Shown here in pieces: positions 25,899 to 32,552 of a stretch of DNA of 64,000 bases. This stretch comes from Acidobacteriota bacterium. GTDB lineage: Bacteria; Acidobacteriota; Thermoanaerobaculia; Multivoradales; UBA5704. Within the stretch, counting starts at the first letter, position 1; the number at the start of each line of letters is the position of its first letter. Position numbers and translations under genes: made by a program. Location of the stretch: contig JAXDKG010000051.1 in the NCBI GenBank assembly GCA_034667225.1, positions 106,657 through 170,656 of the forward strand, written 5' to 3'. The notes below the pieces were generated by a model that did no database searches, was not told the origin of the DNA, and was given only the letters and a program-made list of their open reading frames with translations.

Positions 25899-26483
25899 AT
25901 GACGCGGGGAACGGAGCAGCCGACCGACGAGGATCTGGTTGCAGCGGTTCTCGAAGGAGATCGGGACCGCTTCGGCGACCTGGTCGACCGATACCAGGGC
26001 CGCCTCGTCAACTATCTGTTCCGCCTGCTGCGCAACGTGGACGACGCGCACGACCTGGCGCAGGAAGTTCTCGTCAAGGTCTACCAGGTGCTCGATCGCT
26101 ACGATCCGCAGTACCGGTTCTCGACCTGGCTCTTCCGGGTCGCCCAGAACGCCGCGATCGACCAGATCCGCCGCCGGCGACTGAAGGTTGTTTCGCTGCG
26201 GCAGGACGACGATGAAGGCGAAGGTCGTGATTGGGACCTGCCATCCCCGGAGCGCGGACCGTACGGCGACCTGCGTAACCGGGAGAGGGGAGACGCCATT
26301 CAGGAGGCCATCGACTCGCTCCCATGGGAATACCGGGAGCTGATCCTCCTGAGGCATTTCGGCGAGCTCCCCTACGAAGAGATCGCCCAGCTCAAAGGCA
26401 TGCCTCTGGGCACGGTGAAAAACAAGCTCTTCCGGGGACGGCAGATGTTGAAGGATAAATTGCAAGAGTTCCTGAGCGATTGA
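25899..26483 (+). CDS. ECF (sigma-70 family, group 4) RNA polymerase sigma factor
   Basis: 194 aa; region 2 (RLVNYLFRLL…DLAQEVLVKVYQVLDRY…FSTWLFRVAQNAAID) and region 4 HTH (YEEIAQLKGMPLGTVKNKLFRGR). Confidence 0.9.
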   Translation: MTRGTEQPTDEDLVAAVLEGDRDRFGDLVDRYQGRLVNYLFRLLRNVDDAHDLAQEVLVKVYQVLDRYDPQYRFSTWLFRVAQNAAIDQIRRRRLKVVSLRQDDDEGEGRDWDLPSPERGPYGDLRNRERGDAIQEAIDSLPWEYRELILLRHFGELPYEEIAQLKGMPLGTVKNKLFRGRQMLKDKLQEFLSD

Positions 26484-26494
26484 GCGGGGGCAAC

Positions 26495-27079
26495 ATGAAG
26501 CCGGATCACGCTACCTACAGAGAATGGCTGAACCTGGAGGCCGACGGCCGGCTGCCGCGCAACGAGCGGGCCCGGCTCGAAGACCACCTCGCCACCTGCT
26601 CCGACTGCAGCTCCGAGCTCGCCGAGCTGCGCGGGCTGGAAGGCCTCCTGCTCCGGTCCAGCTTGCCGGTGCGCGAGAGCTTCCGCGACGACGTCCTCGC
26701 CGCCCTGCCCGTCACGGGCTGGGAAGCGCGCGGCCCGCGCACCTGGGGCTTCCCGGCCGCCATGTTCATCCTGCTCGGCGTGATCTCCACGGCGGTGATC
26801 GGCAGCGGCTCGGCGGCCGGCGAGCACGCCGGCCTGGGCGCGCTCTCGGCCATCTTCGGCATGTTCCAGGCCACGGTCCTCGCCGGCTCCGGCCTTCTCG
26901 GCGCGAGCTGGAAGGGCTTCGGCCTCGTCTTCCAGGAGATGCTCTCCTCCCCGATGAGCTTGGGCATGTTCGGAGTGTTCGTGCTCTGCCTGAACATCCT
27001 GCTGGTCTCCATGATCCGGCGCAAGCGCACCGCGGTGGGCGTGAGCGAATCGCGCCCCGGGTCAAATCGATACAGATAG
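26495..27079 (+). CDS. anti-sigma factor with N-terminal zinc finger and transmembrane region
   Basis: immediately downstream of and overlapping the sigma gene; HLATCSDCSSEL zinc-finger anti-sigma motif; hydrophobic C-terminal half. Confidence 0.7.
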   Translation: MKPDHATYREWLNLEADGRLPRNERARLEDHLATCSDCSSELAELRGLEGLLLRSSLPVRESFRDDVLAALPVTGWEARGPRTWGFPAAMFILLGVISTAVIGSGSAAGEHAGLGALSAIFGMFQATVLAGSGLLGASWKGFGLVFQEMLSSPMSLGMFGVFVLCLNILLVSMIRRKRTAVGVSESRPGSNRYR

Positions 27080-28596: not shown

Positions 28597-28661
28597 GTGC
28601 CGCAACTAGAGCATGTTAGGGCTCGGGAGTGCGGCTTTTTGAGGAGGTGGAACGGGTGAGG

Positions 28662-29120
28662 GTTCTTCGGATCTACATCGATACTTCGGTTATCGGTGGC
28701 TGTTTTGACTCGGAATTTGCGCCTTGGTCTAACGGGCTCATTCGAGATTTCCAGGAGAGCCGATTTCTTCCCGTTGTTTCCGAGGTCGTCGCGACAGAGA
28801 TTGAGCTTGCCCCTGAAACTGTAAGAAACAAGTGGGATGAAATCCTTCTCCTGAATCCAGAGTTGATCGAGGTGACTGAAGAGGCGAAGGTACTCACCCA
28901 GAGTTATGCTGAACATGGTGCCCTGCCCCCGAAGTTCCATAACGACATGCTCCACATCGCTTTGGCAACGGTGGCTGATATAGATGTGCTCGTCAGCTGG
29001 AACTTCAAGCATATCGTCCGGTTGGACAAGATCCGGATCTTCAATGCAGTGAACCTGGAGTTGGGCTATAAGCAGTTACAGATCTACTCACCCAGGGAGG
29101 TGACGAGCTATGGAAAGTAA
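28662..29120 (+). CDS. PIN-domain ribonuclease (VapC-like toxin candidate)
   Basis: GAGGAGG RBS then GTG 28662 (track start 28629); MRVLRIYIDTSVIGG…EVVATEIEL…DMLHIALATVADIDVLVSWNFKHI, the acidic-residue pattern of PIN domains; ~50% GC against ~68% flanks. Confidence 0.6.
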   Translation, partial: VLRIYIDTSVIGGCFDSEFAPWSNGLIRDFQESRFLPVVSEVVATEIELAPETVRNKWDEILLLNPELIEVTEEAKVLTQSYAEHGALPPKFHNDMLHIALATVADIDVLVSWNFKHIVRLDKIRIFNAVNLELGYKQLQIYSPREVTSYGK

Positions 29121-29325
29121 TGAAATCGACGCGGTCGGACTGGTGCGTCAAATCCGGGATGATCTGTACGAGACAACAAAGGAGCTATCTGCAGAAGAAT
29201 TGATCGCATTCTATCGGCGCCACGCTGCTGGAACAAAGGAAAGATTGTCTCGACTCCGTGCAGAACGAGAAGATACGGGAGTCGATAAAACGCTCCAATC
29301 CGATCGCAGGACTGCGCTGAGGTAA
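29110..29325 (+). CDS. small charged helical protein; candidate cognate partner encoded downstream of the PIN gene
   Basis: 71 aa; ATG overlaps the PIN stop by 11 nt (ATGGAAAGTAA), implying translational coupling; no recognisable family. Confidence 0.4.
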   Translation: MESNEIDAVGLVRQIRDDLYETTKELSAEELIAFYRRHAAGTKERLSRLRAEREDTGVDKTLQSDRRTALR

Positions 29326-29948: not shown

Positions 29949-30235
29949 TCCGCGACATCTTCCGCTGCAAGCCGGGCAAGGCGAAGCTGCTCGTCGAGAA
30001 GCTGCGTGCGACCCTGCCCTCGACCGAGAAGGAGGACGGCTTTCGAAACTGCCGGCTGATGGTCGACGCCGTCGCCACGTACTGGACGGTCGTCTGGGAA
30101 GCCGAGATCGAGAGCCTGGATCAGTTCGAGCATCACATGGCAAACTACGGCTCGCGCCCGGAGGTTCAGCAGGCCATGGCTGGGTACCTCGATCTCGTCG
30201 AGGGTGGGCATCGCGAGATCTTCCGGGTGGTTTGA
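29939..30235 (+). CDS. small alpha+beta-barrel protein (Dabb/ABM-like, 98 aa)
   Basis: ATG 29939 overlaps the GNAT stop by 8 nt; MYVIRDIFRCKPGKAKLLVEKL…WTVVWEAEIESLDQFEHHM has the size and pattern of dimeric alpha/beta barrel proteins. Confidence 0.45.
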   Translation: MYVIRDIFRCKPGKAKLLVEKLRATLPSTEKEDGFRNCRLMVDAVATYWTVVWEAEIESLDQFEHHMANYGSRPEVQQAMAGYLDLVEGGHREIFRVV

Positions 30236-30253
30236 TTAGAAAGGGGACTCGTC

Positions 30254-30811
30254 ATGTTGAATCGCATCGCGGTTCTCGTCGTGGCATGTTGTGCCTGGGC
30301 CGGCGCTCTCGCAGCGCAAGAGGTTGGCAGCGCGAGCGGCAAGGGAATGATTGAGCGGATCGTCGAGCCGAAAACCGGCAAGAGCGAGCAGGTGACGTTC
30401 CAGCCGCGTTACTCGTTCGCCTACCCGGAGAGCACCGGCGCGGAGAAGTTCACATGGATCGTCCTCACCGAGAAGGAGCCCCCGTTGAAGTCGTGGGCGG
30501 CGGCGAAGGACCGTGCCGAGGCGCGTCGGCTCTGGTGTGGGACGGAAAAGACGCCGTTCGTCGCCGTGAAGCTGGACGCGGACTGGAAAGTCGATCTGTA
30601 CTTCCTGTGTCCGGCGAACGGCTGGGTGAACACCGAGATGGTGAACACCGCGAACGGGCTCGACAGCGTCGTCGTCGAGCTCGAGGTGCGCGACGCGAAG
30701 AGGCTCAAGGGCACTCTGCGCACGGGCCAAGGCGCTTGCGGAGACACTGAGAGCATGACCTACTGCGAGGCGACGGGCGACTACACGTTCGATGCCCCTC
30801 TTTCGAAATGA
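30254..30811 (+). CDS. secreted protein of unknown function (4 Cys)
   Basis: 185 aa; signal peptide MLNRIAVLVVACCAWAGALAAQE. Confidence 0.5.
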   Translation: MLNRIAVLVVACCAWAGALAAQEVGSASGKGMIERIVEPKTGKSEQVTFQPRYSFAYPESTGAEKFTWIVLTEKEPPLKSWAAAKDRAEARRLWCGTEKTPFVAVKLDADWKVDLYFLCPANGWVNTEMVNTANGLDSVVVELEVRDAKRLKGTLRTGQGACGDTESMTYCEATGDYTFDAPLSK

Positions 30812-30814
30812 CGC

Positions 30815-30843
30815 TTGACAACCGTAAACCTTTCCTCTATCTT
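30815..30843 (+). promoter_or_regulatory. near-consensus sigma70 promoter TTGACA-N17-TATCTT
   Basis: perfect -35 hexamer, 17-nt spacer, -10 TATCTT; 4 nt after the stop of the preceding gene; drives the tiny ORF below. Confidence 0.55.
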
Positions 30844-30869
30844 CCCTCTCCCTGAACGAGGAAACCACC

Positions 30870-30950
30870 ATGAAGCCACAATCGATCTCGACCGCCTTTA
30901 ACTGCTACCAGCCTGGTAGCCGGCGGAGCGTGCAGGGAGATCGACCCTAG
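30870..30950 (+). CDS. 26-codon ORF with a strong RBS (MKPQSISTAFNCYQPGSRRSVQGDRP); small peptide or coding part of an sRNA
   Basis: GAGGAAA 5 nt before ATG; lies between the promoter at 30815 and the terminator at 30978; below the ORF-track cut-off. Confidence 0.35.
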   Translation: MKPQSISTAFNCYQPGSRRSVQGDRP

Positions 30951-30977
30951 AAGAGCGGAAACATCCGGCGTCTTGCC

Positions 30978-31010
30978 GGCCTTCCGGGGTCGAACCCCGG
31001 AAGGCCTTTT
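30978..31010 (+). terminator. rho-independent terminator
   Basis: 12-bp perfect stem GGCCTTCCGGGG/CCCCGGAAGGCC, loop TCGAA, then TTTTCGCTTTT. Confidence 0.75.
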
Positions 31011-31135
31011 CGCTTTTCTGGGGGGTAATGATTCAGTGGATAACGTCCGCCTTTCTCCGGCGGCGCCCGCGCCTCACTGCGTGTGATCGGTAGCGTGCGT
31101 TCCGTACACGGGTTCTAAGGGGGTGGACTTAGCCA

Positions 31136-31210
31136 GCAAGGCTAGCTCAGCCAGGTAGAGCACCAGACCGTTAATCTGGCATCCGAAGGTTCGAATCCTT
31201 CGCCTTAGCA
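31136..31210 (+). tRNA. tRNA-Asn (anticodon GTT)-like; possibly degenerate
   Basis: hand fold: D-arm GCTC-AGCCAGGTA-GAGC, anticodon stem CCAGA/TCTGG with loop CCGTTAA (GTT at 31170-31172), variable loop CATCC, T-arm GAAGG-TTCGAAT-CCTTC; acceptor pairs only with a bulged A in the 3' strand, position 33 is C, and no CCA is encoded. Confidence 0.6.
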
Positions 31211-31448
31211 AGGTAGCAAGGTTTTCCGGAGGGCGGGTTCCGCAACCCGCCGGCCGCCGTGAAGTCTGCGGCGGCAGCATGCGACGGCGCTCTGCGGCGT
31301 CGCCGACCTGACCGTGACAAAACGCCGGATCACGAAGTTTGTGTGAAAGCGGAGTCGGCGCAGTCTTGGGCGGCGCCCCGCGCCCGAGGTGTGGCGGAGC
31401 GGTGTCTTCGCCCTCCGGTAGCCGCTTACAGAGAAAGGCAGGTGGAGC

Positions 31449-32552
31449 ATGGGTGTGAGACTGATCAAGGTGGAGACGTACGAGCGTGGCCTGGTCTTCG
31501 TGGATGGCGCGTTCTCGCGGCTGCTCGCGCCGGGCCGGCATTTCGTGACGGAGCCGCTGCGGAGCCTGCAGGTGGAAAAGGTTTCCATCCGTCAGCCGTG
31601 GCTGCGCCACCGCGACCTCGAAGTGATCGTGAAGTCCGGGGCGCTCGCGGGCCAGGCCCTGGTACTGGATATCAAGGACCACGAGCGCGCGCTGGTGTGG
31701 ATCGACGGACGTCTCGATTCGGTGCGCGGTCCCGGTCTATACGCGGTCTGGACCCTGTTCCATGAGGTCCGCGTCGAGCTGATTGATGCGCGGCCGGTGC
31801 GTTTCGAGCATCCGGAGCTGGCCAAGGTGCTTGCGGCCGAGGGCGGGATGCTGCTGCTGGAGTCCGCGACCGTGGCTTCCGGCTGGGTCGGCCTTGTTTT
31901 CATGAATGGCCGTCTGGGCGAGCCTCTGGCGCCGGGTCTGCACGGATTCTGGCGGGGCGAGGGCGATCTGCGGATCATTCAGTTCGACCTGCGTGAGCAG
32001 TCGGTGGACATCTCCGGCCAAGAGATCATGACGGCTGACAAGGTGACGCTGCGGATGAACGCGGTGGTCACCTACCGGATCGCAGACCCGGTGAAGGCGA
32101 TCACGGAGGTCGAGGGCTACGCCCAGGCGCTGTACCGGCAGGCACAGCTCGCGTTGCGGGCCGTGGTGGGCACCCGCGAGCTCGACGCGCTGCTGTCCGA
32201 CAAGGACGGCGTCGTGGCCGAGCTGGAGGGAATGGTGCGGGTCCGGGCCGAGGCGCTGGGCATCGAGGTGCGCACCATAGGTCTGCGCGACGTGATCCTG
32301 CCGGGCGAGATGAAGGAGATCCTGAACCGGGTGACGGAAGCCCGCAAGGCCGCGGAGGCCGCCCTCATCACGCGCAGGGAGGAGACCGCCGCGATCCGCT
32401 CGCAGGCCAACACCGCGCGGCTCTATGAGTCGAACCCGACCCTGATGCGGCTGCGCGAGCTGGAGGTTCTGGAGAGGGTCACCGAGAAGGCGAATCTGTC
32501 GGTCATCCTGGGCGAGGGCGGGCTGGCGGATCGGGTGGTGAAGCTGTTGTAG
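31449..32552 (+). CDS. SPFH/band-7 domain protein (stomatin/flotillin-like)
   Basis: 367 aa; AGGTGGAG RBS; band-7 core and coiled-coil C-terminus (…EARKAAEAALITRREETAAIRSQANTARLYE…). Confidence 0.7.
   Translation: MGVRLIKVETYERGLVFVDGAFSRLLAPGRHFVTEPLRSLQVEKVSIRQPWLRHRDLEVIVKSGALAGQALVLDIKDHERALVWIDGRLDSVRGPGLYAVWTLFHEVRVELIDARPVRFEHPELAKVLAAEGGMLLLESATVASGWVGLVFMNGRLGEPLAPGLHGFWRGEGDLRIIQFDLREQSVDISGQEIMTADKVTLRMNAVVTYRIADPVKAITEVEGYAQALYRQAQLALRAVVGTRELDALLSDKDGVVAELEGMVRVRAEALGIEVRTIGLRDVILPGEMKEILNRVTEARKAAEAALITRREETAAIRSQANTARLYESNPTLMRLRELEVLERVTEKANLSVILGEGGLADRVVKLL

Follow-up and report, generated by a model that had tools for sequence, protein, structure and literature searches.

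A stretch of 64,000 nucleotides (nt) from an Acidobacteriota bacterium of the Thermoanaerobaculia (contig JAXDKG010000051.1, positions 106,657 to 170,656 of the forward strand; hereafter the window) carries at positions 30815-31019 a promoter, a 26-codon open reading frame (ORF) and an intrinsic terminator, all on the forward strand and followed on it by a predicted tRNA-Asn and a gene for an SPFH/Band 7 protein. This unit is probably a translated leader with a terminator/anti-terminator switch, that is, a ribosome-mediated transcription attenuator for the genes downstream, a reading to which we assign, on sequence evidence, a probability of about 0.78. The operon would consist of the leader, a tRNA-like element, the SPFH gene and probably also the fused MFS/spermidine-synthase gene next to it. 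This reading is supported directly by an open frame that is conserved, by an anti-terminator that is both conserved and covarying, and by a layout linked to the tRNA and SPFH genes downstream.

Conservation of the leader and its reading frame

Relatives of the unit were gathered from GTDB genomes by way of the SPFH protein (55-95% amino-acid identity), 80 loci being kept out of 519 confirmed relatives, and metagenome contigs were scanned with the terminator hairpin as a pattern, which gave 64 loci with about 30 true relatives among them. The closest relatives are metagenome-assembled genomes of Thermoanaerobaculia, in which the SPFH protein reaches 95% amino-acid identity (loci L001 and L031); the distant SPFH relatives (55-60% identity) are mostly Planctomycetota. 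By blastn and nhmmer the promoter-ORF-terminator unit was found at full length in L001, L031 and L002, with 75-84% nucleotide identity, and as weaker matches in other Thermoanaerobaculia. The hairpin stem (GCCUUCCNGGG...CCNNGGAAGGC) with its U-tract is present in 31 loci, Planctomycetota included, and always upstream of the SPFH gene, while the architecture of hairpin and ORF together recurs in 49 distinct leaders from Acidobacteriota, Planctomycetota and metagenomes. Conservation of the whole unit places it far beyond what chance would produce. In what follows, structure-pair statistics refer to a gapless alignment of the 49 leaders, and the anchored duplex and frame analyses to 51 leaders.

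The sigma-70-type promoter (30815-30843) is made of a -35 hexamer TTGACA (30815-30820), a 17-nt spacer and a -10 hexamer TATCTT (30838-30843). It matches the consensus at 10/12 positions, as expected from the near-perfect promoter described in the original prediction, a note made earlier from the letters of the window alone. That note had the promoter 4 nt past the preceding stop; the two are indeed adjacent, with the stop of the preceding ORF at 30811 and a measured gap of 3 nt to the -35 hexamer. A scan over 3 kb returned two promoter-like sites, compared with 0.3 expected from shuffles. The pattern TTGACA-N17-TAnnnT is kept in the Acidobacteriota relatives and in L020, and in the alignment of close relatives nucleotide conservation starts exactly at the -35 hexamer. 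The 5' leader (30844-30869) comprises a C/U-rich box (CCCTCTCCCT, 30844-30853) within which transcription presumably starts, a Shine-Dalgarno (SD) sequence GAGGAA (30858-30863) and a 6-nt spacer, and both the C-rich box right after the -10 hexamer and the GAGGAA are kept across Thermoanaerobaculia leaders. For the presumed transcript (30850-31016) the predicted folding energy is -72 kcal/mol, with z = -3.9 relative to dinucleotide shuffles.

The leader ORF (30870-30950; 26 codons and a TAG, peptide MKPQSISTAFNCYQPGSRRSVQGDRP) starts as GAGGAA-N6-ATG and is the one proposed originally, where the same start was written GAGGAAA-N5-ATG. An SD and ATG that are in frame with, and open to, the conserved stop occur in 40/51 leaders. 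SD and ATG sites upstream of that stop number 45, 2 and 7 in frames 0, 1 and 2, the 5'-most such site is in frame in 39/41 leaders, and the median stop-free run upstream of the stop is 64 codons in frame 0 as against 32 and 23 in the other two. The triplet after the last sense codon is a stop in all 51 tabulated leaders (TAG in 43, TGA in 5, TAA in 3). Measured from SD and ATG the ORF varies from about 19 to 51 codons, with indels that preserve the frame, and its end lies 27-35 nt from the hairpin in almost every relative. The conservation of frame, start and stop in about 40 of the 51 leaders shows that the ORF is not incidental.

No such conservation is seen in the peptide. Substitutions between close pairs are distributed 32/48/48 over the three codon positions, without a third-position excess; the GC content at third positions (GC3) is 0.69, below the 0.84-0.87 of the genes nearby; and the ORF draws on several of the rarest codons. 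Between clades the central part of the peptide shows no relation, and it differs even where the SPFH proteins are 95% identical. A central hairpin within the ORF (CUACCAGCCUGGUAG, 30905-30919) also varies in sequence among relatives, L001 and L031 having a different one (CUGUCGRCCUGACAG) at the same position. Purifying selection on the amino-acid sequence, by which a functional small protein would be recognized, was not found in these comparisons. The substitution pattern, the low GC3 and the unrelated peptide middles therefore point to a regulatory leader ORF rather than a protein gene, and the ORF is, to judge from the aligned leaders, selected for being translated and not for its peptide. 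The comparison with related genomes suggested in the original prediction has thus given a divided answer, with the open frame conserved and peptide-level selection absent; promoter and ORF, whose absence from related genomes it had named as evidence against itself, are both conserved there.

Terminator, anti-terminator and ribosome position

The intrinsic terminator (30978-31019) consists of a 13-bp hairpin (30978-31006; -27.3 kcal/mol, 10 G-C pairs in the stem) and a T-rich tract (31007-31019) that begins TTTTCGCTTTT; a rho-independent terminator had been predicted here with a 12-bp stem and an extent of 30978-31010, of which the terminator itself stands and the dimensions change. Its 5' arm has a second possible partner. 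Region 2 (30941-30958, UCGACCC-UAG-AAG..CGG), which includes the final Pro codon and the stop codon of the leader ORF, can pair as the 5' strand of an anti-terminator with region 3 (30976-30993, CCG GCCUUCCGGGGUCGA), formed by the terminator 5' arm and the first loop bases. In the window this duplex (30941-30958:30976-30993) has a predicted energy of -25.8 kcal/mol, the UCGA of the terminator loop pairing with UCGA at 30941-30944 and the post-stop GAAGG with CCUUC in the terminator 5' arm. Region 2 is in effect a near copy of the terminator 3' arm with a built-in stop codon, as can be seen in L005 (CCCUAGAAGGCUUUU compared with CCCUGGAAGGCUUUUU).

The bases before the stop covary across leaders with the 5' side of the terminator loop. 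UCGACCC in the window stands opposite GGGGUCGA, GUCACCC in L022 opposite GGGUGAC, GCGGCCCC in L095 opposite GGGGCCGC, UCAUGCCC in L106 opposite GGGCAUGA, and GCUCCC in L108 opposite GGGAGC. Over the 51 leaders the duplex of regions 2 and 3 averages -21.8 kcal/mol, compared with -10.9 kcal/mol when region 2 is shuffled (mean z -3.8). When the 4 nt before CCC are set against the first 4 loop nt, 122/188 positions are paired (shuffles 96 +/- 5, with a maximum of 116 in 10,000). The upper helix of the anti-terminator has 78.7% of its cells paired (70.9 +/- 1.5 in shuffles, 0/500 of which reach the observed value), and its covariation score is 0.265, compared with 0.147 in shuffles (0/500) and 0.057-0.120 for slid partners. 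By these measures the anti-terminator is real, conserved and covarying. It is also what the predicted folds of the nascent RNA favour: in the window, with RNA ending before the terminator 3' arm, the anti-terminator belongs to the minimum free energy (MFE) structure when no ribosome is present and when the ribosomal P site is at or before 30924, while region 2 is masked once the ribosome stands at 30933 or beyond. The anti-terminator is part of the nascent-RNA MFE structure in 29-34 of 40 leaders.

The unit had been described as free-standing, which is not supported: the 5' arm of its terminator has a conserved and covarying partner that contains the stop codon, no other sigma-70-like promoter was found before the SPFH gene, and the distance from the T-run to the start of a tRNA is 10-60 nt in relatives. 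The unit has an ORF led by a ribosome-binding site and kept open, an intrinsic terminator on the same strand before the genes, and an anti-terminator overlapping the part of the ORF that a ribosome would cover, all of which are expected of a ribosome-mediated attenuator. A run of regulatory codons, the additional feature of the amino-acid subtype, is absent from the window leader and present as a Thr run in L087 and L124.

A further pairing may involve the beginning of the ORF. Region 1 (UCGAUCUC, 30882-30889), a candidate anti-anti-terminator, pairs with GAGAUCGA at 30937-30944 in an 8-bp helix that overlaps region 2 and that, with the terminator, makes up the MFE structure of the full-length leader. 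The equivalent helix of the sister clade is perfect over 9-11 bp and joins codons 3-7 to the stop and the bases after it; L005, L006, L120 and L141 show compensatory changes in it. A universal helix of regions 1 and 2 was rejected, since the pairing is compensated in one Thermoanaerobaculia clade only and is not significant overall.

The end of the ORF has two features that could hold a ribosome. An internal SD-like motif stands at a fixed distance from the stop in 45/51 leaders; its family form is GGAGG, and the window has GGGAG at 30935-30939, separated by 5 nt from CCC, the last sense codon. Predicted pairing with the anti-SD sequence peaks for 7-mers starting 18 to 12 nt before the stop (mean -6.4 compared with a background of about -1.3 kcal/mol), and the 5-9 nt separating the motif from the last sense codon correspond to the spacing of initiation sites. 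The last sense codon is CCC in 45/51 leaders, and Pro-stop endings terminate slowly, as is known from TnaC and from SsrA tagging at C-terminal Pro. Motif and Pro-stop together may thus prolong ribosome occupancy of region 2.

In the mechanism that we propose, transcription would start at the strong promoter and the 26-codon ORF would be translated, with region 2 able to pair with region 3 in an anti-terminator about as stable as the terminator. With the lead ribosome at the stop codon while the polymerase transcribes the terminator, region 2 would be covered, the terminator would form, and termination would leave only a leader RNA of about 160 nt; the GGGAG, at an initiation-like spacing from the P-site codon, and the Pro-UAG end would lengthen the stay of the ribosome at the stop. 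If ribosomes lagged or stalled earlier in the ORF, regions 2 and 3 would pair first and the polymerase would read through into the tRNA-like element, the first downstream product, and the SPFH gene. The leader would in this way report translation capacity. What we infer is which way the switch turns, that GGAGG and Pro-stop act in pausing, and what the physiological signal is; that this signal is general translation capacity or stress is suggested with moderate confidence, because the window leader has no codon run.

The putative downstream operon and other genes behind the leader

The element annotated by ARAGORN as tRNA-Asn(GTT) (31136-31209, 52.6 bits; the element as a whole 31136-31210) has an extra base in the 3' strand of its acceptor and a C33 in place of U33. 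Among four close relatives, with SPFH proteins 89-95% identical, the anticodons are GTT, GAT, ATT and GTT (GAT in L031, ATT in L001), and L001 has lost the 5' acceptor strand altogether. The anticodon loop is hypervariable: of 58 such SPFH-proximal elements, 10 have a loop of 6, 8 or 9 nt, U33 is found in 25/48, and 15 different triplets occur as anticodon, with A34 in 10. Conservation is strong in the D and T arms, whereas the acceptor stems are imperfect (equivalents in L001-L080 and L092-L141). A 7-bp acceptor, a 7-nt loop with U33 and a stable anticodon, as expected of a canonical elongator tRNA, are therefore not what this element presents. The tRNA-Asn beside which the unit was originally placed thus exists as an ARAGORN call, and in view of C33, the extra acceptor base and the drifting anticodon is, on its sequence, a degenerate tRNA-like structural element and not an ordinary tRNA. 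It is perhaps the remnant of an array, retained as a processing signal. The idea of a leader tuned to the amino acid of the tRNA behind it was rejected, as the anticodon varies between close relatives and mismatches the leader codons.

The conserved protein-coding cargo of the operon is the SPFH/Band 7 gene (31449-32552; Pfam PF01145, E = 7e-37), which starts 240 nt past the tRNA-like element and is followed by the fused MFS/spermidine-synthase gene. In a scan for sigma-70-type sites, no other promoter was found between the leader and the SPFH ATG, and in four relatives conservation is uninterrupted from the -35 hexamer to the SPFH start. Inspection of the translation by eye revealed no obvious N-terminal membrane helix and what appear to be three repeats of the SPFH-domain opening motif (..GLVFVDG....L.PG.HF..) before the Band 7 domain (residues 141-312).

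A tRNA is present nearly always between the hairpin and the SPFH gene, its anticodon varying. It lies on the same strand within 750 nt upstream of the gene in 55/74 loci, and at least 10 tRNAs lie upstream in 18/74. In Planctomycetota (L014, L024, L027, L028, L034, L035 and L039) the SPFH gene is found inside or directly after same-strand arrays of 14-34 tRNA genes; in L014 and L028 tRNAs flank it on both sides and the leader heads arrays of 22-26 tRNAs. An SPFH gene preceded by a tRNA or by a tRNA array is also present in Lacipirellula limnantheis I41, Adhaeretor mobilis HG15A2 and Aeoliella sp. SH292, which are candidate cultured carriers of the leader. The first tRNA starts about 10 nt after the T-run in L020 and about 60 nt after it in L023 and L032. 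Upstream of a 23-tRNA array, L027 (1100-1283) carries a different long hairpin followed by GGGCCTTTTTTT and lacking the CCUUCC stem, which may be a variant leader. We found no description of the association between SPFH genes and tRNA arrays in the literature searched.

Two further stretches of the putative 5' untranslated region (5'-UTR) are conserved. Between terminator and tRNA-like element lies a structured segment (31057-31119, CCGGCGG...GUUCCG..ACGGGUUCUAAGG) with nhmmer matches in 13 loci and a consensus of 20 pairs, 5 of them with compensatory changes; it has no Rfam match. The GC-rich 240 nt between the tRNA-like element and the SPFH gene (31210-31448) show nucleotide conservation in 11 loci and hardly vary among the four close relatives, which suggests a second structured or regulatory 5'-UTR element.

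The leader design is not restricted to SPFH operons. On metagenome contigs it also precedes genes for a GNAT acetyltransferase, two S-adenosylmethionine (SAM) methyltransferases, an ABC exporter, a MatE transporter and an RNase H-like protein. In L087 and L124 (metagenome contigs Ga0272444_...) a Thr-rich ORF ending in TTAPSTTTETTTRREMP and a stop lies directly upstream of the aspartate-semialdehyde dehydrogenase gene (asd), and looks like a threonine attenuator. This resemblance to a classical attenuator supports the view that all members of the family are ribosome-mediated attenuators whose sensor ORFs can be exchanged.

Searches for a known counterpart were negative. Within 30000-32000 of the window, Rfam 15 at E <= 1 returned only the tRNA and a sub-threshold U7 match on the hairpin (20.4 bits, the gathering score being 34), and in 12 related loci, at gathering thresholds, only tRNAs. 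No further copy of the leader design was found elsewhere in the window. The terminator pattern had no match in 2.9 million viral contigs, and a phage origin was rejected. Another candidate, a T-arm-like minihelix or remnant of a tRNA-derived attachment site, was suggested by the likeness of the GGGGUCGAACCCC loop to a T-loop, and was rejected as well: the loop varies freely while the stem is conserved, and the loop bases covary with the codons before the stop. In the literature searched we found neither a description of the leader design nor a link between attenuation and SPFH genes, tRNA arrays or tRNA-like elements.

Other parts of the window were noted in passing. A low-GC island at 28600-29300 (about 50% compared with 65-70% around it) was probably acquired horizontally, and its 163-aa ORF (28629-29120) has no Pfam family above threshold. 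Farther upstream, an extracytoplasmic function (ECF) sigma factor gene (25899-26483, Sigma70_r2/r4) ends 4 nt into a 199-aa ORF (26480-27079), whose product resembles a membrane anti-sigma factor.

Alternative readings and known attenuators

Several points weigh against the attenuator reading or some part of it. The transcript ends, the translation of the ORF and the read-through are all deduced from sequence, the promoter scan covered sigma-70-type sites only, and for a window leader without a run of regulatory codons the signal is a guess. The region 1 helix is invariant in the window's own clade, and over all leaders the pairing of region 1 has a mean z of -0.8, which is not significant. 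The preference for CCC and for UAG where the ORF ends can be explained by base pairing alone (CCC with GGG, the G of UAG with C), so that the data do not require pausing at Pro-stop. The terminator stem has 95.9% of its cells paired in the alignment, a value reached in 0/500 shuffles and inflated by the fact that about half of the leaders were fetched with the terminator sequence as search pattern. Of the anti-terminator cells, 21% are unpaired, and the helix is bulged in many leaders. Finally, with the ribosome at the stop the anti-terminator appears in 0/40 leader folds, a result that is not independent evidence because the masking was imposed.

Of the options offered by the original prediction (a small protein, a regulatory leader, or a small RNA (sRNA) with an incidental ORF), the regulatory leader is the one that the evidence favours; the small protein lacks a codon-position signal, and the incidental ORF does not agree with a conserved frame. 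A gene for a functional 26-residue protein followed by an ordinary terminator is hardly credible. It would account for the SD, the ATG and the conserved open frame, and the ends of the peptide do look conserved (M-K/R-x-Q.. and ..G-x-x-x-P before the stop), but these ends fall within RNA pairing regions 1 and 2 and show covariation with the strands opposite them, and the substitution pattern, the low GC3, a length of about 19 to 51 residues and middles unrelated between clades all speak for another role. We also consider it unlikely that the unit is an independent sRNA gene, whose terminated transcript of about 160 nt would act in trans or bind a protein, the ORF being tolerated or secondary. 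Such a gene would explain the strong promoter of its own, the efficient-looking terminator, the stable fold and the conservation of the CCUUCC/GGAAGG stem across phyla, and a terminated leader would accumulate whatever its role in cis, so that an additional function in trans is possible. However, the conservation of the frame and of its start and stop codons far exceeds chance, the best-conserved covarying pairing competes with the unit's own terminator, which is the signature of a switch acting in cis, and a same-strand tRNA, SPFH or other gene always follows, sometimes without room for a promoter; nor was a seed-like single-stranded conserved region identified.

The same attenuator anatomy could also respond to a more specific signal, be it release factor 1 (RF1) or termination efficiency at Pro-UAG, the supply of one aminoacyl-tRNA, or an antibiotic that targets the ribosome and takes effect via the nascent peptide, and this we likewise hold to be improbable. 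The prevalence of UAG and CCC as final codons (43/51 and 45/51), the slow termination generally known for Pro-stop, the acetyltransferase, methyltransferase, ABC and MatE cargo typical of antibiotic-induced attenuators, the Thr-rich leader before asd, and an Asn or Asp codon often found after region 1 in the sister clade would all fit. But UAG and CCC are both accounted for by the anti-terminator pairing, TGA and TAA variants occur, and the downstream anticodon mismatches the leader codons, L009 having a Gln anticodon and no Gln codon in its leader. The peptide, moreover, is not conserved, which argues against a sequence-specific arrest peptide.

In kind, the mechanism is already known. TnaC is a short leader peptide ending in ..R-P-stop, and ribosome occupancy at its stop decides downstream transcription; it depends on specific residues and on free tryptophan, and what it blocks is Rho and not an RNA hairpin. 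The Pro-stop ending is alike in the leader described here, which differs in its intrinsic terminator and in a peptide that is not conserved. As is the case for the classical leaders of amino-acid operons, E. coli trpL, thrL, hisL and pheL (PMC1183508, PMC3082878), a short translated ORF has an end segment able to pair either upstream with region 1 or with the terminator 5' arm, and by analogy a ribosome at the stop would mask region 2 and favour termination; the asd-linked relative even has the run of Thr codons. Unlike those leaders, that of the window has no codon run and has its stop codon inside the anti-terminator strand, with a Pro codon and a conserved internal SD-like motif close by; where the classical leaders regulate biosynthetic enzymes, the cargo here is an SPFH protein together with a tRNA-like element or tRNA arrays; and the leader belongs to other phyla, without sequence similarity to the classical ones and without a matching Rfam leader family.

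The attenuators responding to antibiotics and translation stress, such as bmrB-bmrCD of B. subtilis (PMC4191407) and the streptococcal msrD leader (PMC10314930), have in common with the proposed switch that ribosome occupancy of a leader ORF chooses between terminator and anti-terminator without amino-acid-specific codon runs, and genes for an ABC exporter, MatE, GNAT and methyltransferases are found behind relatives of the window leader. Those systems, in contrast, are found in Firmicutes, are unrelated in sequence and, in the cases studied, need drug-dependent stalling at defined peptide motifs; in the window leader, which has no known inducer, the peptide is not conserved. Long tRNA arrays (L-arrays) are spread horizontally, also in Planctomycetes, and that of Anabaena PCC 7120 is silent by default and induced more than 100-fold by translational stress (PMC8421152). 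Its control lies at the promoter, where direct repeats over the -10 element and the start site are the target of a presumed repressor; the words leader, attenuation and terminator are absent from that paper (PMC8421152). The output of the leader proposed here would match, tRNA arrays being induced when translation is impaired, as the arrays headed by it in L014 and L028 would be. The control element, unlike that of Anabaena, would be a translated attenuator, and the array of the window is reduced to one degenerate tRNA-like element. What is new is the leader family, which has no Rfam model, is conserved in sequence across two phyla, has its stop codon in the anti-terminator and carries an unusual cargo.

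A broader proposal, which we advance tentatively and at somewhat under even odds, is that an attenuator design common to Acidobacteriota and Planctomycetota ties transcription of tRNA arrays, and of an SPFH operon in which a tRNA-like element with a freely drifting anticodon is always present, to the speed with which ribosomes arrive at the stop codon of the anti-terminator, where the internal SD and Pro would park it, and that this design has been reused as a sensor of stalled ribosomes for resistance-type genes and asd. The features met here as a missed small ORF and a tRNA-Asn are, for annotation, regulatory or structural RNA features and not ordinary genes. The family is a sequence-conserved one in poorly studied phyla and could be used to find translation-stress regulons in metagenomes, and it would link to translation stress a tRNA-like element and an uncharacterised, highly conserved SPFH protein of cytoplasmic appearance. 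The regulation of individual bacterial tRNA genes, especially those in long arrays, is little understood, the one studied case involving a promoter element and an unidentified repressor (PMC8421152). The leader offers a self-contained and testable mechanism, in which the ribosome would report translation capacity to a polymerase about to transcribe tRNA genes. If true, this would amount to a direct feedback of translation capacity on tRNA gene transcription, and to a second mechanism, unrelated to that of Anabaena, by which L-arrays are induced under translational stress.

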